DNA of 63,773 nucleotides, counting the filler, from Globobulimina sp. (taxonomy: Eukaryota): the NCBI GenBank assembly GCA_003354225.1. It is 30 parts of 30 records of this genome, joined end to end, with 100 filler letters (N's around TTAATTAATTAA, not from the genome) between each part and the next. Parts side by side here need not be neighbours in the genome. Positions count along the whole stretch, not along the records: positions 36,206 to 38,234 come from PIVH01009617.1; 29 more parts are not named here. The stretch is one strand, 5' to 3'. Below are positions 17,041-44,721 of the stretch, one piece after another (the first letter of the stretch is position 1; each line of letters starts with the position of its first letter). The notes under the pieces are model-generated. The model saw nothing but the letters and a program-made list of their open reading frames with translations. It was not told the origin of the DNA and made no database searches. The position numbers were made by a program, and so were the translations under genes.

Positions 17041-17378
17041 AAATACGAGTACAACCACATATATGTTAATTTTTCGAGATGGTAAATAAATTTAATATGT
17101 AATGGCTGAGATTGGACACTTGTTTTTATGATATTACACGACTGTTTCTGCCGAAAAAAACAACACGTCATTCGACAACAAACTGAATAGCATATTCTAT
17201 GCGATGCAGCAATATAAATGCAGTAAAATAATAAATTAAAAATAATGTTGATAGCAATGGCCCAGCAACCGAATGGAGATGGACTCAGCTTAAATTTCCA
17301 TTCAATATACAAACAAACACCAATTGTAGAAAATATAGTTAATAATAATAACAAGATGAATAAAACCAAAGTCTCCAT
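17041..17378 (-). CDS. Hypothetical membrane protein, truncated
   Basis: Two hydrophobic helices after the ATG at 17378; divergent from the MBOAT gene. Confidence 0.5.
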
Positions 17379-17421
17379 GCTTTTTTTACTTAGCTAGAAA
17401 CTTTTTTCTTTTATATAAAGA

Positions 17422-23430: not shown

Positions 23431-25460
23431 CCTTGCCATCCGTGGTCTTGACCCCACGAGCCTGCATCATCTGACCACCAGTTTCCCTCGCAAGAGTTGA
23501 GGTAGCCCATGATTGCCGAGGCAATCGCCCGTGCCACCACCGACCAGTGGGAAGACGAAACTGACGGCACCACCGGACAGCAACACAAATTGGCCGAGAT
23601 CGCGCTGCCCAGCACGTACTATAACAGCGAGTGCGGCGACCAACACAAGATCATCAGCGGCGGGACGAGCAGCATCGGCATCGGCGGCGGCAATGTGGTC
23701 GATTTGTTCATGGATCCATTGCATGAGATTGAGTTCACAGCGGATAATCTGGAGCTACATAACAAGAAATTGGAGGTGCAGCGGCAGCAGAATCGCTACA
23801 ATAAGTTGAGCAGTAAACAGAAACGGGAGCCATACCATTATCACCAGCACCAACACCAACATTTGCACCATCATTACCACAATAACGGAGCGGGCGGCGG
23901 TAGTACCACAGCGGCGGACATTATCAATCAGCAGAATGGGCATGGCACGCATTTGGGGATGAACCTGGGCGGCCTGTCGCATCTAAGTGGCGTCAGTACG
24001 GATTCGCAGGCCTTGGTCCGCGTGTTCCATCCGACGAACAGAATGCGATCCATGTTCCAGGATAAAGAGAAAAAAAAACTGAATTTGCCGGTTAACCCGG
24101 AATCGCAGTACTCGACTGCTGCGGCCTTGGATCCGTTGGACGAGTTGGATAATATGGACGTGTTGAATAACTATGATAAGCACAAGGAGTTAGGGAATGG
24201 GACGGATGCGTTTGTGTATGAAGTTGTAGATAGGTACGTTTTTTGGCATTTTTAATGCAGTGGAAAGTTTTTTTTAATGTGCTTCAGTAAAGCTCATGTC
24301 GACATGCTTGAGTTGCTCCAAATATTCATGCTTCGTACCTTGTCAGATATTGTTGTAACATCTGACAAGATACGGCGCATTTTATTTCATTTTCGCTGTT
24401 GTAAACTGTTTGTTGTACATGCACAGACGTGATAAGTCGCACGTGGCCATGAAATTAACCAAGCGTAAGTCTGGCAGATACAAGACCGAGATCCATTTAT
24501 TGCACCAATTGCGTACGTGTCCCTACGTGGTGAAGCTATTAAATTGCTTGGAAAACGACAACGTCTATGTGTTAATCTTGGAACACGCACCCATGAGTTT
24601 GGAGAACCTGTTGCTTCAACGATGTACCAAGCATCCCATGCAAGAGCGTGTGGCGAAAACCATTTTATCGCAGATCTTGAAAGGCATCCAAGCCATTCAC
24701 AACTTGGGCTTCGTGCACAAGGACATCAAGCCTGAGAATATCTTAATCTTCGCCAACCGGTCTGAGCGCAAATTGATTGCCAAAGTGGCCGACTTCGGCT
24801 TTGCGACTCGCGTGGCGCCCGACAACATGATCAGTATCGACAACCTGCCGCGAGAGAAGTACGTGGAGTTCGAGAAGCATGTACGTGATCGGTGCGGTAC
24901 GCCCGGCTTTTGGCCGCCGGAGTTGGTGACCAGTTTGGCAGTGCTTAAGTATGCCTTTGAAATGGACGTGTTCAGTGCCGGCGTGACATTGTACCGCATG
25001 CTCTGCAACGAAATGCCGTTTGGCATCTTCGAATCGTGGAAATATAACACACATCATAGCCATGGCCAGGCGCACAAAAAACTGTGCAAAGTCAAGCCGA
25101 ACTGGAAGGTGATCAGTTGGATACAGTCGGACAACAAATATACGCCGGTGCTGTCCTCGCGGAAATTGTCGGATACGGTGAAGGATTTGCTGCGGTCGAT
25201 GTTGCGGATCAGACCGGAGCAGCGAGCCAATGTGGACTCGTGTTTAGCGCACCAATTTTTTAGCAATAATAAGAAAGTTAAGCAAAATAAGAGTGGCGGG
25301 TTGCGGCCAAATAACAGCGGCAGTCACATGCGGAACGCGTCGAATAGCAACACCTATTCCAATACCAATACGTATTCGGAGAGTAAGCATAGGAAAAAAA
25401 GATCCAACTCATCGAATCGGAAATATTCCACTCATCGAATCGAAAAAAAGATGAAAATGA
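23431..25460 (+). CDS. Ser/Thr protein kinase (CAMK-like, HKD non-RD), partial; intron 24234-24426
   Basis: LGNGTDAFV, VAMK, HKDIKPEN, DFG, CGTPGFWPPE, DVFSAG. Confidence 0.95.
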
Positions 25461-36205: not shown

Positions 36206-36217
36206 TGGAGTGCTCAT
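36206..36217 (-). CDS. Start of a divergent virus-like ORF (MSTP...), truncated by the contig end
   Basis: Minus strand TATATACAAAGAAT-ATG mirrors the start context of the 36741 ORF and has the AGTCAAT box 72 nt upstream. Confidence 0.55.
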
Positions 36218-36279
36218 ATTTCTTTGTATATAATATAAATACTATTTAAATTTTAAAATAATTTGCCCATAAAAATATT

Positions 36280-36310
36280 ATATTGACTTAAAAATTATAT
36301 GAGTCAATAT
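36280..36310. promoter_or_regulatory. Pair of inverted AGTCAAT boxes (putative bidirectional promoter)
   Basis: ATATTGACT-N13-AGTCAATAT; each half lies 63-72 nt from an ATG on its own strand. Confidence 0.65.
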
Positions 36311-36363
36311 TAAAGCGATATAAAATTAAATTACGCATATAAATATTATATATTAATATACAA

Positions 36364-36633
36364 ATGAATATAAGCGAATACATAATAGCAGAGATTGATT
36401 ATCCAATTTTCATGAATGATTGTGAGGAAATTGATATTATGAGTTATATAAACCATAGATATGGGTTTGGAATTAGACAATATACGATTAGTCAGATTTA
36501 CAATTTTTGTAATGATTATGAAATTAAATTATTTATTAGAATGCGTAATGGATATAATTTAAGAATATCATATCATAGAATGTGTGAAATATTATATGAT
36601 CTATTAAATCATACCGAATATTTTTCAGGATAG
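36364..36633 (+). CDS. Hypothetical protein, virus-like
   Basis: Intronless 89-aa ORF with GAGTCAAT at -63. Confidence 0.7.
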   Translation: MNISEYIIAEIDYPIFMNDCEEIDIMSYINHRYGFGIRQYTISQIYNFCNDYEIKLFIRMRNGYNLRISYHRMCEILYDLLNHTEYFSG

Positions 36634-36668
36634 ATATTTTTATTTAATGAAAATAATATATGACGAAA

Positions 36669-36677
36669 TGAGTCAAT
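36669..36677 (+). promoter_or_regulatory. TGAGTCAAT upstream box
   Basis: GAGTCAAT begins 71 nt before ATG 36741. Confidence 0.6.
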
Positions 36678-36740
36678 TTATTTTATTTATTCATTAATGC
36701 CGCAAAATTTATATATTTGCTTAATATATACAAAAGAATA

Positions 36741-37046
36741 ATGGCTGAAACACCAACAAACTTCACTTTAAAAAAATATAACGGCAAATGTGTTTTTTAT
36801 AAATCTAATGATCCCGTCATAATTAATGGAATTTCATATGGATATTTAAACCCAAATGTTTATTCAATTAATGACGTAATACAAATTGCGATTGATAATA
36901 ACATACACGGCTTCTCCAGAATCGGAGTAGGCTGCGGCAAATGGCGCTTTCAAAAAGCATCTCGCTCGTATAATGAATTACATACCGCAATTGAAACAAA
37001 TACAAAATCTTATCCTGGCCTCGCTTTTTATTTATTGGACTATTAA
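36741..37046 (+). CDS. Hypothetical protein, virus-like
   Basis: Intronless 101-aa ORF starting MAETPTNF. Confidence 0.72.
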   Translation: MAETPTNFTLKKYNGKCVFYKSNDPVIINGISYGYLNPNVYSINDVIQIAIDNNIHGFSRIGVGCGKWRFQKASRSYNELHTAIETNTKSYPGLAFYLLDY

Positions 37047-37098
37047 ATATCATAAATAACCATCAAAAATAAAATATAAAATATATAATTTATGATTC

Positions 37099-37106
37099 GA
37101 GTCAAT
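37099..37106 (+). promoter_or_regulatory. GAGTCAAT upstream box
   Basis: 67 nt before ATG 37166. Confidence 0.6.
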
Positions 37107-37165
37107 TATATATTATTACCAGAATAAACCATAATAAAATTTATTTGTATATCATATATAAAGAT

Positions 37166-37792
37166 ATGTTCTCCTCTAATAATACCCAAAGCGATTTATC
37201 AAAAGATGCCGATACCCTCATTAATTCATTTAATTGCGAAGATGGTGATATAATTGACATCTGCTTTTTTTGCTGTGAAACCGATATATTATCAAATATA
37301 AGATGTAATAATTGCGACGAAGGCAAAAATGTATGTGAATATTGTTATAATTTACTTAAAAACGATAAAATTAAAGAGTTTAAAAAAAATATAAATAATG
37401 ATGATTTTGAAATTGATGATGATGATTGTATGAATGATATCCTATATGACTGTGATTTTATTTTTTATGATAATGAATATATGTGCTTTTGCAATGTAAA
37501 TTCATGTAATAGTTGCGATGAAAAAGGGTATTGGGAAGATTTTCATTGCTGCGAAGAATGCAATGAGACATTTTGTAGTGGCTGTGTGGCTCATGTTCGA
37601 GATTCGACATATTGTGTTGGCTGCTTAGATAAAAAACGTACAATTGGCGTCTGCTGTTATTGCGATATGACGAATGGCGATCCGTGTGCATGTGATGATG
37701 AAGATGAAGATTGCGACTGTGATGATGTATATGATGAAGATATAGCAATATTTGAGATTGATGGGCAATATATGTGTAATAATTGTTTTTAA
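37166..37792 (+). CDS. Cys/Asp-rich multi-CxxC protein, virus-like
   Basis: About nine CxxC pairs (CFFC, CNNC, CEYC, CNSC, CEEC, CSGC, CVGC, CCYC, CNNC), intronless. Confidence 0.78.
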   Translation: MFSSNNTQSDLSKDADTLINSFNCEDGDIIDICFFCCETDILSNIRCNNCDEGKNVCEYCYNLLKNDKIKEFKKNINNDDFEIDDDDCMNDILYDCDFIFYDNEYMCFCNVNSCNSCDEKGYWEDFHCCEECNETFCSGCVAHVRDSTYCVGCLDKKRTIGVCCYCDMTNGDPCACDDEDEDCDCDDVYDEDIAIFEIDGQYMCNNCF

Positions 37793-37811
37793 TTCCGGAT
37801 GAATGATGATG

Positions 37812-37843
37812 ATTTTTAATTTAATTACGCTTAAATTAAAAAT
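37812..37843. terminator. Perfect AT-rich hairpin between convergent ORFs
   Basis: ATTTTTAATTTAA-TTACGC-TTAAATTAAAAAT: 13-bp stem, 6-nt loop, no U-tract or GC stem. Confidence 0.65.
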
Positions 37844-37860
37844 GTTATATAACGTATAAT

Positions 37861-38135
37861 TTAACTTCCTAAATCAAAGTCAATATCGAAGGTTAATTTA
37901 CCACCGATCGCGGTTACATCTGCATCTCCCTCGGAATACATTTCATACCAGTGATCCGACGAATTAACTTTGATAGTAGTGAAGCCGGTTCGAATTGATT
38001 GTGTAGTAAATATGTTCTTTAGAGCGCGTGTTGTTCCAATGGGGAGAACTTCAACGGTCATCGGGTTGTTAAAGTCGGCCGGGTCACCGCCAACTCCACG
38101 TCCATCAATATGAAATGCATACTGCTGGCGTCTAG
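37861..38135 (-). CDS. C-terminal part of a beta-rich protein, possibly structural
   Basis: YAFHIDGRG...GGKLTFDIDFDLGS; 5' end unclear. Confidence 0.55.
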
Positions 38136-38334
38136 CTGAGAACAAAAAAATCTCTGCGAACACATCGATTCAATGCCTAACAGCTCATAAAAGTTATAAG
38201 GGGCCCATTATCTGTGCACATGCCTGGGTGCAGGNNNNNNNNNNNNNNNNNNNNNNNNNNNNNNNNNNNNNNNNNNNNTTAATTAATTAANNNNNNNNNN
38301 NNNNNNNNNNNNNNNNNNNNNNNNNNNNNNNNNN

Positions 38335-39266
38335 CAATATCATGATTTGATCTGCCAACCATAACAAATGCTGTGTGCCCAGTATTGCGCATTTTGCTGT
38401 TTTGCAGGGTCAACATAACTCCATAGAAAGTGTCTTGATTTGTTGATTTGTTATCTTTAATTATAATGAATTCATCCAAGTTATGAGGATCTCTAACTTT
38501 GTGAAATAATGAAATATCACATTTACGCAAGCCATACGTATGGTTTTCAGCTTTAAATGGATGGAATACTTCTCCTATCCTCATACCTGTAATAGCCATA
38601 ACATTGACAGCCACTAAACTCATACGAATATGCATACAAAAAGGATAAAATATAATCTCTTCACGAATAATCAAATAATGTTTGGAAGCAATGATAAAAG
38701 CAGAGGATGATTTATCTGCTTTGCAATATAAAAATTTACGAGTCACAATTTTGTTGAATCGAATTAAATGATCTTTAACGAATGGAATTGCTGTATCATT
38801 GGGATCAGATTTATTTTGTCGTTTACCGTAATCCACTAAGTTCATCAATGATGGATTAGTTGACCAGGAAGTTGGTGTCATGGCCAATTTATTAAAATGA
38901 TCGACTGCACATAATTTGTATCTGACTGTGTTCCATTTATTAACTTTCTTACGTACCCACAGACAGTCTATCATCCAAACCATTAAAAATATGTCTTTTG
39001 TAGGAAATTGAAGGAATTCAGTTTTCGCAATGTTTAAACGCGTCATCGTGTTGCAAAATTCAAAGAAATTTGCAGTGTAAGTATCATCTGATGATAATTT
39101 GATGCCACGTGACATCATAGTCTCTAAACCCAAAGCATGAGTGGGTAGTAATGACCATATATTGTGTGAATAATTTGAGTTTCGTGTACGACCTAAATTT
39201 GTATTGAAATCTAACTAAATGTACATGTTACATTTGTATTTATAATGTGATGTGAATAACAATCAT
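38335..39266 (-). CDS. Tyrosine recombinase, 3' truncated; predicted intron 39215-39260
   Basis: N-terminal helical domain, MAITGMRIGEV (catalytic Arg), LTLQNSK (catalytic Lys region). Confidence 0.85.
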
Positions 39267-40363
39267 AAAAATGAAATGTCGGGATAGATGAAAGGAGTTG
39301 GTCTGCTATCAAAATCTGTTAAATTCCTTGATTTACAATGCAATAAAAACTTAGCTATATCAAAGCGAGACAAATCATCCGCATACAAATTTTCTGATGT
39401 TTTAATATAATTAATTTTAACCCTTAACTTATATTCAAAACAAAACCATACTGTCCAACGAATACAATCCATTAAAAACATATCATTCGTATTCTTGGAG
39501 ATAAAAACAGCTTCACAGTGTTGATTATCACACCGTAGATTTACGTCAATGTTCTCTTGAAAGAAATCCTTATAAGTCCATAGCGCTGCGACTATCGCTA
39601 ACGCCTCAAAATGAGCAATATGCTGTTCTTGAGTATAAACAATAGATTTGTCGGAGTCTAAGTATTTTGTGTATATTGTCATAAATTCAATTGGCACGGT
39701 GTCAAACGACCAATGACCCTTAAAATACGCACCAATCCCTGGCTGCCAGTTCGGTTTCTCTCCATTCGTGGCACCATCAGTATATATATTGACCTTTGGT
39801 CTATCTCCAAAGCCAACAACATCATACACATTAACTCGATCACATATATACATATATTTAATCCATAAATTTGCATCTTTGACTTCGTGATCACAAAAAT
39901 ACATAAAAGTAATATCATCGCCATAACTTCTTTTATGTGCCGTTAATTTCATTCTCATCCTACGCAAGAAAGCCGTACCCGGCCACATCAATGCTGCCAT
40001 CCAAGTTAGTGTACCCATTAATGATTCGAACTTATCACTCATCAGCATTCTGCACGAAACAATAATGATTAATATTAATAGACATTTTTTCTTCTTATTA
40101 GGCCCAGGACCGACTGTCATGTCCGTGGAGTCATAAATTAATCCACAAACCTCCATAATCCACGAAACTAGCTTTCGTTTGGCCTCTTTCTCAATGTATC
40201 CACATAAATGTAGAAATTGAAAAAATTTCTCCATCAAAAATGACTCTCTCTTTCTATCTGAGAATGGAAACGATTTAATGAAACCAATGTGGTCGTCAAT
40301 ATATACAAGATTCTCAATACGTTCATTGTATAATAATAACGGTTGTATCCAATGCTTGAACGC
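39263..40363 (-). CDS. Reverse transcriptase/RNase H (DIRS1-type), 5' truncated
   Basis: NLVYIDDHIG (YxDD) in frame upstream of the tracked ORF; ESLMGTLTW; RNase H IYTDG, HIAHFEALAI, CDN, ENLYADDLSR. Confidence 0.93.
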   Translation of the reverse strand, partial: AFKHWIQPLLLYNERIENLVYIDDHIGFIKSFPFSDRKRESFLMEKFFQFLHLCGYIEKEAKRKLVSWIMEVCGLIYDSTDMTVGPGPNKKKKCLLILIIIVSCRMLMSDKFESLMGTLTWMAALMWPGTAFLRRMRMKLTAHKRSYGDDITFMYFCDHEVKDANLWIKYMYICDRVNVYDVVGFGDRPKVNIYTDGATNGEKPNWQPGIGAYFKGHWSFDTVPIEFMTIYTKYLDSDKSIVYTQEQHIAHFEALAIVAALWTYKDFFQENIDVNLRCDNQHCEAVFISKNTNDMFLMDCIRWTVWFCFEYKLRVKINYIKTSENLYADDLSRFDIAKFLLHCKSRNLTDFDSRPTPFIYPDISFL

Positions 40364-42592: not shown

Positions 42593-43002
42593 ATTTCCTG
42601 CGCATCGATCCCAACAAGAAGATCACCGTTCTTGTGCCTCTACATTTTATCAATCAGAGTCAATCTGTGGGCGTAAAAACGCAAGGGGGCCAAGCCTCCC
42701 ACACTATCACCGAACTTGAGGTTAGTTGCCTACCCGACAAGCTTCCACAATATATTGAAGTGGATATGCTGGAAGTAGAGCTAAACCAGATTGTTCATAT
42801 CTCCGATATCGTGCTACCCGAAGGTGTTGAAAGTGTCGCTTTGCAACATGGCGAGGAATACGACACTATCGTTGCGCAGATCAGCATGATCAAGGCTGAG
42901 GACCTAGGGGAAGAAGTTGAAGGTGAAGTTGAAGGTGAAGAAGGCGAAGGTGCAGAAGGAGGCGAACCAGAACAGGGCGCTGAGCCTAGCAGCGACGAAT
43001 GA
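42593..43002 (+). CDS. rplY: 50S ribosomal protein L25/Ctc, 5' truncated (gammaproteobacterial type)
   Basis: [20 protein letters not shown]...GVKTQGG...[16 protein letters not shown]...VHISDI, acidic tail; higher GC; adjacent to pth. Confidence 0.95.
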
Positions 43003-43028
43003 TTTGCTGATTCCTGCCGAGCCTCGCT

Positions 43029-43355
43029 TTGAGCCCCACTTTGAACAAGCGCTTGCAGTTGATTGTCGGCCTGGGAAATCCCGGGCCGAAGTATGACGGC
43101 ACCCGCCACAATGCTGGGGCAATCTTTGTTGAAGAGTTGGCGCGCATTTACAGCCTTAGCTTCAAGGCCGAGAGTAAATTCTATGGCCTCTGCGCCCGTG
43201 GCGATGTTGCCGGCCATGACCTGCGACTACTAATCCCCACTACCTATATGAATTGCAGTGGTCAGGCGGTGGCGGCCATCAGTAGGTTTTATCAGATACC
43301 CAGCGAGTCCATTCTGATCGCCCACGACGAGTTGGACATTCCTCCCGGCACAGCA
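43029..43355 (+). CDS. pth: Peptidyl-tRNA hydrolase, broken at a chimeric junction
   Basis: LIVGLGNPG...[25 protein letters not shown]; the expected GGHNG is missing because the sequence switches. Confidence 0.95.
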
Positions 43356-43724
43356 CCCACTCCACCCGTCGCAGCGCCGGCAATGAGCCCTCCCGTCACA
43401 GCTCCGACCAAGAGTAAATTTAATGTCCAGTCGGAAAAGAATTTAATTGACTGAAGAATGTTTTTGGAATTTTTGAAGAATTTAAATGTTTTTTTAAGAA
43501 TTTAAGCTAACTTTTTTCACTACAAATTTCGTCACATTTATCCCTATGGCGAAAGCCAAAACTAAAAGTCACACCAAACCAACCGGTCATTGCTCCAAAT
43601 CAATTAGTTTTTAATCGACCACAAGGTGTTTACACATTTTTTTTTGGACTTTTTAAAATATTTTTTTTGATTTTTTTTTTTGATCGAAAAATGGTGCATA
43701 TTTTCCATAAATTGCATGCAAACT

Positions 43725-44027
43725 CATCACCATCGATCACGGTGACAAAGCTTTTTTTTTTTTTGGATTCGGCACCATTTGAAACCACTATACACATAAA
43801 AGTTTCATTTTGTACGAATCATACCACACAAACATAAATTATTTTAACTTTTACTATTTGTATATGTAGTTTGTATATAATTTTACTATCAGAAATGACA
43901 AACCTTCAAATAATTTTGGTTTGGCTGGTATGACTGATAAAAAATGATACTTTTATCTATATAGTGGTTTTAAATGGTGCTGAATCCAAAAAAAAAAAAA
44001 GCTTTGTCACCGTCATCGATGCTGATG
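43725..44027. repeat. 303-bp segment bounded by 68-bp imperfect inverted repeats (MITE-like)
   Basis: 43725-43792 vs reverse complement of 43960-44027: 4 mismatches, shared T13/A13 tract. Confidence 0.8.
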
Positions 44028-44721
44028 CGTTACACGCTATTTTTAATATTTTTTTATGAATGATACTTGAAATAATGCATTTTTTGCAGTATTTTAACGT
44101 TCGCTGCTGTAAACACATAAAAACATCAAATATTATGTATACAAAAACGTTTCCCATATAATATTTAAACTTTTCTGATATTTTAAATTTGTGTGTCATG
44201 CATCATCAGCCTGTTTCTGGTGATTTTATTGCAAAAAATCTACGTGGTGATTTTACATTAATTTCGGCTGAATTATACGTGGATGGAATGGATACAAACA
44301 AATAATAATATCAATAACAACTATTCGTCGTCATCGGACAGTTGAATTGTCTTTCTGGCCTTGCCGTGACGGCGACGCATGCGTTCTGTGACGAATTGCA
44401 TTGACATGGTGTCATGCAAGAGGAATGTTTTGAAGTTAAGAATTTACGAAGAAGAATTTTCGAACTTTAAGAATTTACGAAGTAGGAATTTCCGAAATTT
44501 CAACGCAATTAATTTTCTCTTGTGATACACTGCATTTTGTGCTTGTGTAATTTTAAAGATTTGCGGTTGATATTTTTTAGATCGATGATCGTATCAAAAA
44601 CGATAAACGACGAATATGATANNNNNNNNNNNNNNNNNNNNNNNNNNNNNNNNNNNNNNNNNNNNTTAATTAATTAANNNNNNNNNNNNNNNNNNNNNNN
44701 NNNNNNNNNNNNNNNNNNNNN

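Follow-up and report, generated by a model that had tools for sequence, protein, structure and literature searches.

Contig PIVH01009617.1 of Globobulimina sp. fills positions 36206-38234 of the window, the 63,773-nt stretch of DNA analysed here, in which 30 unrelated contigs of about 2 kb are joined by N spacers. It is present as a whole (2029 bp), flanked by N44-TTAATTAATTAA-N44 spacers. Three complete genes (ORF1 to ORF3) follow one another on the plus strand, a fourth open frame (ORF4) converges on them, and a divergent gene start (ORF0), recognized by its upstream signal and not by an open frame, lies at the left end (table 1). The initial annotation had counted four proteins here; three of them stand as complete genes, the fourth is startless, and ORF0 adds a fifth start.

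Table 1. Genes, upstream elements and inverted repeats of contig PIVH01009617.1, in positions of the window.
Feature	Position	Strand	Remarks
ORF0	36206-36217	-	ATG at 36217-36215; 4 codons on the contig, runs off its left end; divergent
Composite match of ORF0	36223-36288	-	ATG 5 nt after
Divergent distal pair	36282-36308		AAGTCAAT on minus strand (36289-36282), GAGTCAAT on plus strand (36301-36308)
ORF1 proximal element, ATATACAAA	36356-36364	+	Final A is shared with the ATG
ORF1	36364-36633	+	89 aa; uninterrupted; orphan
ORF2 distal element, GAGTCAAT	36670-36677	+	Pattern match
ORF2 proximal element, ATATACAAA	36726-36734	+	6 nt before ATG
ORF2	36741-37046	+	101 aa from first ATG; uninterrupted; orphan
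Inverted repeat after ORF2	37080-37114	+	Perfect, 11 bp; 23/1000 shuffles reach 11 bp
ORF3 distal element, GAGTCAAT	37099-37106	+	Inside the 37080-37114 inverted repeat
ORF3 proximal element, ATATATAAA	37154-37162	+	One change relative to the others; 3 nt before ATG
ORF3	37166-37792	+	208 aa from first ATG; uninterrupted; acidic, cysteine-rich; orphan
A/T hairpin between convergent ORF3 and ORF4	37812-37843		Perfect 13-bp stem, 6-nt loop; 0/1000 shuffles
ORF4	37861-38163	-	100-codon open frame; TAA end; GC 0.44; orphan

The lengths of ORF1, ORF2 and ORF3 are far above chance: when the left 1655 bp were simulated 2000 times under a first-order Markov model, the longest ATG-initiated frame never reached 208 aa (0/2000), the second longest attained 101 aa in only two cases (2/2000) and the third never attained 89 aa (0/2000). 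The frames are closed by TAA and TAG, as in the standard code, and a ciliate code was rejected, since neither triplet occurs in frame. ORF3 contains 30 cysteines among its 208 residues and nine CxxC pairs, which bears out the earlier remark on one protein with many such pairs; its product is probably a multi-zinc-binding protein.

The situation is different for ORF4, whose first in-frame ATG does not occur before residue 36 and which is preceded by stops in all frames. It probably represents the 3' portion of a longer gene, and it is doubtful that it belongs with the rest of the contig. Therefore, the description of these genes as intronless holds for the uninterrupted ORF1-3 and is not supported for ORF4. 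A J-domain start in another frame ('YNFYELLGIES', 38180-38212), joined to ORF4 by a small intron, was considered and rejected, as the spacing to any HPD-like motif is wrong and that part of the contig has no Logan contig support.

The genes are tightly packed, as had been claimed, with spacers of 107 nt (ORF1-ORF2), 119 nt (ORF2-ORF3) and 68 nt (ORF3-ORF4); overall, the spacers span 68-146 nt and have a GC content of 0.13-0.21. Each ATG has an A at position -3, and no GGAGG-like Shine-Dalgarno sequence is visible upstream of the ORFs, in agreement with the initial annotation. Scans of the contig for tRNAs and Rfam families gave nothing (the snoR28 match, at 23.5 bits, stayed below its gathering score of 45). 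There is no cellular marker gene on the contig, and tblastn and blastn revealed no paralogue of the ORFs or of the contig in the rest of the window.

By the searches that each received, ORF1 to ORF4 are orphans. The earlier statement that they belong to no recognizable family was upheld, with no Pfam match at E<=1 and no credible PHROGs match for any of the four. At E<=10, ORF1 and three segments of ORF3 returned only sub-threshold Pfam matches (US22, E 0.095; zf-C5HC2, E 0.16), the latter being the best segment match of ORF3, which at 12.7 bits falls short of the cut-off of 22. Accordingly, ORF3, for which the whole protein has no Pfam match, was not assigned to zinc-finger families (RING, B-box, C5HC2 and others). 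A word-indexed search through 5.8 billion proteins, confined to candidates of near length, found no relative for ORF2, ORF3 or ORF4; among PDB sequences, none of the four ORFs had a match below E 0.1. With ORF4, a full HMMER search of 1.84 billion representatives produced only two marginal matches, both to repeat proteins and each covering a different half of ORF4. They were rejected because their scores sum over repeats (in the fn3-repeat match, seven short ones of about 37 residues), and fibronectin type III, suggested by the fn3-repeat match (E 2.7e-4), was discarded along with them, ORF4 having no Pfam match. The Atlas offered only leads, namely unnamed clusters (0.92) and PAN (0.89) for ORF2, and at most 0.83 for ORF3. 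A PAN/apple domain was rejected for ORF2, which has two cysteines and no Pfam match and shares 123 of 256 features in the Atlas lead. Single-sequence AlphaFold2 models were too poor for a search by fold (pLDDT 41.3 for ORF2 and 36.1 for ORF3).

Searches among viruses, which the initial annotation had named as a check on its viral reading, came back as empty as the profile searches: tblastn confirmed relatives among IMG/VR viral contigs for none of the four ORFs, and none of 82 pattern matches of ORF1 in metagenome contigs was confirmed. Likewise, no DNA similarity of the contig to IMG/VR contigs was found. According to Pfam, the four ORFs include no hallmark gene (major capsid protein, PolB, A32 ATPase, VLTF3 or D5 primase-helicase), just as had been noted at the outset; this negative result covers 2 kb, and the rest of the genome may carry such genes.

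The new result of this analysis is a two-part signal at the gene starts. ORF0, ORF1, ORF2 and ORF3 are each preceded by RAGTCAAT, a gap of 47-50 nt and ATATAYAAA, followed by the ATG at a distance of -1 to 6 nt. The distal element lies 62-71 nt upstream of each ATG, and there is no -35/-10 arrangement. The composite pattern AGTCAATN{44,56}TATACAAA has three matches in the 63.8 kb of the window, where 0.01 would be expected; all three fall in this contig, and none of 100 shuffles reached that number. Taken alone, the distal GAGTCAAT has six matches in the window, three of which are in the contig, all on the plus strand; the other three (5000 and 8803, within long ORFs, and 42657) fall in ordinary coding contigs. 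The divergent pair AAGTCAAT/GAGTCAAT between ORF0 and ORF1 forms a 9-bp inverted repeat. An AP-1/GCN4 site (TGAGTCA) was rejected as an explanation of the distal element, since only two of the four copies contain it and the conserved core is AGTCAAT.

Inverted repeats also follow some of the genes. The two-part element is absent from the spacer between the convergent ORF3 and ORF4, where the perfect 13-bp hairpin is found instead. Stems exceed chance in two of the three gene-end spacers, the exception being the one after ORF1, in which the best stem (8 bp) was equalled in 415 of 1000 shuffles. Minimum free energy z-scores of the spacers are weak (-0.26 to -1.95).

Composite DNA patterns were also sought in IMG/VR and metagenome contigs, where each locus had a single match among the matches listed. 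No public viral or metagenome locus among at least 352 showed more than one genuine composite copy. Two loci with two relaxed-pattern matches were rejected, the first (L234) being a satellite of about 118 bp and the second (L124) consisting of overlapping matches with a single proximal element in common; the most motif-dense loci have no gene-start arrangement. No pairing of AGTCAAT with a giant-virus promoter was found among the literature matches listed, and the string 'TCAAT' has no occurrence in a review of NCLDV promoters.

Logan contigs, produced by an independent assembler, match 36220-38126 at a low and even depth (3.3-8.3), with no difference in the long pieces. They part from the window sequence at 37796 and 38126, leaving 38127-38234 (about 108 nt) uncovered, and none among those listed bridges the repeated hairpin between ORF3 and ORF4. 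Several stretches turn up again at other loci in this sample, namely 36341-36364, 36665-36694 (a 30-mer), 37128-37158 and 37812-37838, as judged from the Logan contigs of the single study that contains the contig; the last ~23 nt of ORF2 also recur at another locus of this sample. Two loose ends of Logan contigs open with ATG or AATG and run into other reading frames, and one loose end bears AAGTCAAT. That study, the only one in which the contig was found, may be the source sample itself. The shares of the contig in three runs of the sample are 0.86, 0.06 and 0.00, figures that do not count as evidence for want of a host-contig control, and no RNA sequencing run containing the contig was listed.

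Among known systems, one likeness in architecture is with the Mimiviridae, in which a conserved upstream octamer and hairpin termination are described as marks of the family (PMC6163669; PMC4402537), with the motif AAAATTGA highly prevalent upstream of genes (PMC6163669). Like the contig, these viruses are portrayed in the passages cited as AT-rich, with spacers of about 100-150 nt, a strictly conserved short motif in the spacers and many small ORFans; palindromic hairpins past their gene ends are described as well (PMC6163669; PMC5294985; PMC4402537). However, the contig differs from them in the motif itself (RAGTCAAT), in having a second element that abuts the ATG at a fixed spacing, and in having above-chance stems in only part of its gene-end spacers. 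The mimiviridid early motif AAAATTGA does not occur in it, all eight matches in the window being in other contigs.

The ATATAYAAA element abutting the ATG resembles, by analogy, the late promoters of ASFV and poxviruses, which are described as having an A/T initiator and very short leaders; in ASFV, TATATA is reported as essential and occupies positions -1 to +5 relative to the transcription start, close to the ATG (PMC5294985). What sets these promoters apart from the contig is that they lack a conserved distal octamer some 50 nt further upstream. These viruses share no sequence homology with the contig, whose elements are putative promoters. The cytoplasmic linear killer plasmids of yeasts are also AT-rich and compact, with an upstream conserved sequence before every gene that is read by an element-encoded polymerase. 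The contig differs from them in both motif and distance, and no polymerase or terminal-protein gene is present on the fragment.

No foraminiferan virus was found among the literature matches listed, in keeping with the initial statement that none has been characterized. This statement needs narrowing within the wider group, because ChlorV, giant viruses of chlorarachniophytes, have been published and show that Rhizaria host giant viruses (PMC13196603). The motifs given for ChlorV, AAAAATTGA and TCTA (PMC13196603), were not seen in the spacers of the contig; TCTA in particular is not visible in its three upstream spacers. This comparison covers the motifs, and none of the four ORFs has an IMG/VR relative.

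The best explanation of our data is that the contig comes from a compact, AT-rich genome organized unlike the other contigs of the window. As to which kind of genome, we tentatively favor that of a large DNA virus or a virus-like element, whether free or integrated, with a confidence that stays somewhat short of even. The two-part element shared by the genes, the hairpin between convergent genes, the regulatory stretches recurring at other loci and the deviant dinucleotides all fit such an element. On the other side stand the lack of a hallmark gene on the fragment, of a related viral contig in the databases searched and of the Mimiviridae motif, together with GC and GC3 values that do not set the fragment apart from the other contigs and ORFs. 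The architecture is virus-like; the viral origin that we infer from it is unproven.

A host-specific gene cluster is the next reading in order, unlikely in our judgment and still a serious competitor. The contig had been described as very AT-rich and unlike the host contigs, and in overall base content it does not stand apart: its GC (0.294) lies between the extremes of the other 29 contigs (0.279-0.489), and the GC3 of ORF1-3 (0.18-0.28) overlaps that of ten other long ORFs tested (0.20-0.67), both in favor of host DNA. What survives of that description argues the other way. The contig has the largest share of 100-nt windows with less than 20% GC and is the strongest outlier in dinucleotide-signature distance (rank 1 of 30), with a CpG o/e of 1.42 against 0.95 ± 0.13 (z = 3.5) and a TpA of 0.93 against 0.74 ± 0.08 in the 30-contig comparison. 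The proximal element is similarly divided. Favoring the host, ATATACAAA is somewhat enriched elsewhere (7 matches outside the contig vs 2.76 expected for the whole window), and the TATATAAAGA-ATG context is also found upstream of an ordinary MBOAT gene on another contig. Nevertheless, 15 ORF starts on other contigs all lack a correctly spaced distal element, that of the MBOAT gene alone having a similar proximal context, and the composite pattern is found nowhere else in the window. The recurrence of promoter stretches and of the ORF2 3' end would suit any duplicated family, orphan genes are numerous in poorly sampled protists, and viral marks are entirely absent. On the other hand, spacers of about 100 nt and predicted near-leaderless starts are unlike the long ORFs of the other contigs, which mostly have no ATG start, and the contig is well represented in only one of the three runs of the sample, a count that is no evidence by itself.

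Another compact, AT-rich eukaryotic genome, such as that of an intracellular parasite, a symbiont or a prey nucleomorph, is distinctly less probable. Very short spacers and abundant orphans are typical of compact parasite and nucleomorph genomes, in which short leaders are the rule as well. The deviant dinucleotide signature, the low depth, the compact intron-free genes, the A at -3, the missing Shine-Dalgarno sequences and the use of the standard code, with TAA and TAG as stops, would all be compatible with such a source. Four to five consecutive genes with no homologue in searches of 1.8-5.8 billion proteins would, however, be unusual for a cellular genome, and the contig has yielded no tRNA, no known RNA and no cellular marker.

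An assembly artefact or chance ORFs are very improbable as an account of the locus. The low depth, the uncovered last ~108 nt and the position of the ORF3-ORF4 junction inside a repeat speak for an artefact, a reading that can apply only to the right-hand end, whereas the exact reproduction of 36220-38126 by an independent assembly and ORF and motif statistics far above chance speak against it. Bacterial, phage or plasmid DNA, which bacterial-looking contigs in the window (e.g. 42593-44621, by eye only) might suggest, is the least probable source of all, given genes with neither Shine-Dalgarno sites nor credible PHROG matches, the failure of blastn to match any of 50,697 phage and 72,556 plasmid records, a conserved element so far upstream of the ATG in place of -35/-10 boxes, and a protein with 14% cysteine, which is atypical for bacteria.

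Returning to the virus-like element, its genes would be stand-alone cassettes, each with a distal element and a proximal element abutting the ATG. A single transcription factor or polymerase may bind the distal element, and transcription would start in or at the initiator-like proximal element, resulting in near-leaderless mRNAs. One factor or polymerase would serve the shared element, and therefore all genes of the block would be co-regulated. The A/T hairpins past gene ends may act in termination or 3'-end formation, as in the Mimiviridae, and the products would be small, fast-evolving orphan proteins.

A more far-reaching proposal, and one that we regard as rather doubtful, is that the contig offers a first glimpse of a lineage of large DNA viruses or autonomous virus-like elements without a sequenced relative, associated with the protist or its food. 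Such a lineage might conceivably have a promoter grammar of its own, made up of RAGTCAAT, about 48 nt and ATATAYAAA at the ATG, a supposition with the balance of probability against it. That it would have no protein in common with any known virus or cell is speculative to a like degree.

Should the block prove viral, it would point to a lineage of DNA viruses among hosts for which hardly any viruses are known; only in 2026 did the first report of giant viruses from any rhizarian appear, according to the source cited (PMC13196603). Homology-based virus finders would miss such a lineage, because no protein on the fragment has a relative. The two-part signal, for which 0.01 matches are expected per 64 kb, is specific and could be used as an assembly-wide probe for further contigs. 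If the block is instead host DNA, it would give a rare view of core-promoter structure in a poorly studied protist.

The contig at 36206-38234, which is precisely one of the 30 contigs (each 2027-2030 bp, ordered by descending length, with joints N44-TTAATTAATTAA-N44) that compose the 63,773-base window, carries the same two-part element at every gene start: AGTCAAT, 47-50 nt, ATATAYAAA and then the ATG. It precedes three orphan ORFs of the plus strand (ORF1-ORF3), and the same arrangement is found on the minus strand at the left edge, where four codons follow before the contig ends; this is a fifth, divergent gene start (ORF0). As the contig is one of 30 joined pieces, the DNA flanking it is unrelated, and neighbour context is meaningless anywhere in the window.

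Gene starts and reading frames of the contig, with their upstream elements
Feature	Span	Strand	AGTCAAT	Proximal element	ATG	Proximal element to ATG	Description
ORF0		minus	36288-36282	ATATACAAA 36231-36223	36217-36215	5-nt gap	left-edge gene start
ORF1	36364-36633	+	36302-36308	ATATACAAA 36356-36364	36364	1-nt overlap	89 aa, uninterrupted
ORF2	36741-37046	+	36671-36677	ATATACAAA 36726-36734	36741	6-nt gap	101 aa, uninterrupted
ORF3	37166-37792	+	37100-37106	ATATATAAA 37154-37162	37166	3-nt gap	208 aa, uninterrupted; 30 Cys, 9 CxxC pairs
ORF4	37861-38163	minus					GC 0.44; incomplete gene

All three matches to the composite pattern AGTCAATN{44,56}TATACAAA that the window contains lie within this contig (0.01 expected; at least three in 0 of 100 shuffles), and the two-part arrangement occurs at none of 15 ORF starts compared from other contigs. 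Three of the six window matches to GAGTCAAT alone are in the contig, the others lying in contigs that bear ordinary coding sequence. ATATACAAA alone is mildly enriched outside the contig (seven matches there; 11 against 2.76 expected in the whole window), and this window-wide excess includes two copies on the minus strand of another contig, 13 nt apart within AT-rich non-coding DNA (43857-43878). Among 352 fetched IMG/VR and metagenome loci, none repeated the composite signal, the matches listed being single and at chance level; two matches in a metagenome contig (L234:1400-1700) were discarded as part of an unrelated tandem satellite of ~118 bp.

When the left 1655 bp were simulated 2000 times under a Markov-1 model, the longest ATG-ORF per run had a mean of 62 aa and a maximum of 163 aa, and the observed lengths of the longest, second and third ORFs were equalled in 0, 2 and 0 runs, respectively. 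GC drops from codon position 1 to 3 in each of ORF1, ORF2 and ORF3, a trait of real genes in AT-rich genomes, and each of the four ATGs is preceded by an A at position -3. The initial annotation had described tightly packed ORFs without Shine-Dalgarno sites, one of them rich in CxxC pairs, and this description holds: the spacers measure 107 nt (ORF1-ORF2), 119 nt (ORF2-ORF3) and 68 nt (ORF3 and the convergent ORF4), with a GC of 0.13-0.21, no Shine-Dalgarno sequence is visible upstream of the gene starts, and the CxxC-rich protein is ORF3. Of its four intronless ORFs, only the three on the plus strand are confirmed, since the first in-frame ATG of ORF4 comes no earlier than residue 36 and stops close every frame upstream of it. 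A peptide resembling a J-domain start (YNFYELLGIES; 38180-38212, minus strand, another frame) was rejected, with no HPD at the right spacing and no Logan support for this end of the contig.

The convergent ORF3/ORF4 spacer, from which AGTCAAT is absent, contains a perfect A/T hairpin whose stem is 13 bp and whose loop is 6 nt long (37812-37843), a stem length reached in 0 of 1000 spacer shuffles. A perfect 11-bp stem 3' of ORF2 (37080-37114) surrounds the distal element of ORF3 (23 of 1000 shuffles), the stem 3' of ORF1 is within chance (415 of 1000), and MFE z-scores of whole spacers are weak (-0.26 to -1.95). Elements at starts and stems at some ends suggest a rule by which the element marks gene starts and the hairpin marks gene ends, the hairpin half of which is only partly supported. 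Distal RAGTCAAT and an initiator-like ATATAYAAA at the ATG would produce co-regulated, near-leaderless transcripts, whose 3' ends the A/T hairpins may mark.

No search returned a credible homologue of the ORFs, and the absence of any recognisable family, already remarked upon, persisted in profile searches of the four proteins against Pfam and PHROGs. A word-indexed search of near-length candidates among 5.8 billion proteins gave nothing for ORF2, ORF3 and ORF4, and nothing was found for the ORFs in PDB sequences or among paralogues within the window, for all four in IMG/VR, for ORF1 in metagenome contigs, or for the contig in phage and plasmid records. When ORF4 was compared with 1.84 billion representatives by full HMMER, two matches emerged (E 2.7e-4 and 9e-4), rejected as short-match sums over internal repeats of long proteins that involve different halves of ORF4. 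Atlas neighbours were unnamed, or PAN at 0.89 (ORF2), and AlphaFold2 without alignment gave pLDDT of 41 (ORF2) and 36 (ORF3), which makes a fold search meaningless.

Our best reading is a stand-alone gene-cassette block from a compact AT-rich genome. That this genome is a large DNA virus or virus-like element is a tentative proposal, at somewhat less than even chances. Such an organisation would resemble that of Mimiviridae, which combine a conserved upstream octamer with a hairpin rule (PMC6163669; PMC4402537), and its proximal element would resemble the A/T initiator that late promoters of ASFV use (PMC5294985). Membership in Mimiviridae is not supported: AAAATTGA is absent from the contig, no TCTA was seen in its spacers, and the fragment bears neither a viral hallmark gene, as first reported, nor a similar protein. 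"TCAAT" appears nowhere in the NCLDV promoter review, which places AGTCAAT outside the motifs listed there. Rhizaria are now known to have giant viruses (ChlorV; PMC13196603), and none was found for foraminifera among the literature records listed. With its 2 kb and its orphan proteins, the fragment does not suffice to prove a virus.

A host lineage-specific gene cluster is the next reading, although an unlikely one. Among the 15 compared starts, only that of the MBOAT gene (17305-17421) has the common TATATAAAGA-ATG context; there TATATAAAGA abuts the ATG, with ATATACAAA 117 nt upstream, and the resemblance of TATATAAAGA to the ORF3 proximal element might reflect an initiator context used by the host. 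Base composition alone does not set the contig apart, contrary to the initial annotation: its GC (0.294) falls within that of the other contigs (0.279-0.489), and the GC3 of ORF1-ORF3 (0.18-0.28) overlaps that of other ORFs (0.20-0.67). Its dinucleotide relative-abundance distance is the largest among the 30 contigs (0.152; next 0.131), a signature that is noisy at 2 kb and measured against contigs themselves mixed, with CpG o/e of 1.42 vs 0.95 +/- 0.13 (z = 3.5), TpA of 0.93 vs 0.74 +/- 0.08 and GpC of 1.55 vs 1.22. Independently of the motifs, these values speak for a contig foreign to most of the assembly. A second compact eukaryote among the sampled organisms would also be foreign in this sense, and we consider it rather improbable.

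Ordinary eukaryotic proteins are the products of long ORFs on ten of the other contigs, eight of the ten with Pfam matches (MutL, M1 peptidase, REJ-domain protein, MBOAT, protein kinase, ABC-2 transporter, kinesin-associated protein and jacalin-like protein). The protein-kinase ORF of contig 23431-25460 (GC 0.489) has a GC3 of 0.67 vs 0.20-0.40 in other ORFs, so this contig may derive from another organism than most of the window. Contig 42593-44621, whose GC-richer left half has acidic, bacterial-looking ORFs, one resembling a peptidyl-tRNA hydrolase by eye, is probably a bacterial or organellar fragment. Two long minus-strand ORFs of contig 38335-40363 (284 and 324 aa, the latter without Pfam match) resemble mobile-element parts.

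In public reads the contig was found in one study, which may be the source sample, with 0.86 of its words in one run (X1), 0.06 in a second (X2) and none in a third (X3); no RNA dataset is listed among the runs that contain it. Over 36220-38126 the Logan contigs of X1 are identical to the window, with word depths of 3.3-8.3. Their breaks coincide with short stretches recurring elsewhere in the sample (36341-36364, 36665-36694, 37128-37158 and 37812-37838), where the adjoining sequence is different. Two loose ends begin with ATG or AATG, one bears AAGTCAAT, and in one record an ORF2-like 3' end is followed by 36 other letters and an ORF2-like promoter. The source genome therefore re-uses these regulatory modules and contains at least one ORF2-like paralogous locus. 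Logan cover is absent over 38127-38234, and the single long record over ORF4 departs from the window at 37796 and 38126. Misassembly at the repeated hairpin may have affected both the joining of ORF3 to ORF4 and the final ~108 nt. An artefact would concern only the right-hand end, and together with bacterial or phage DNA it takes up the small probability that remains.

The two-part signal of this gene-cassette block is highly specific, and can be used to retrieve the rest of the genome from the assembly and decide its origin.
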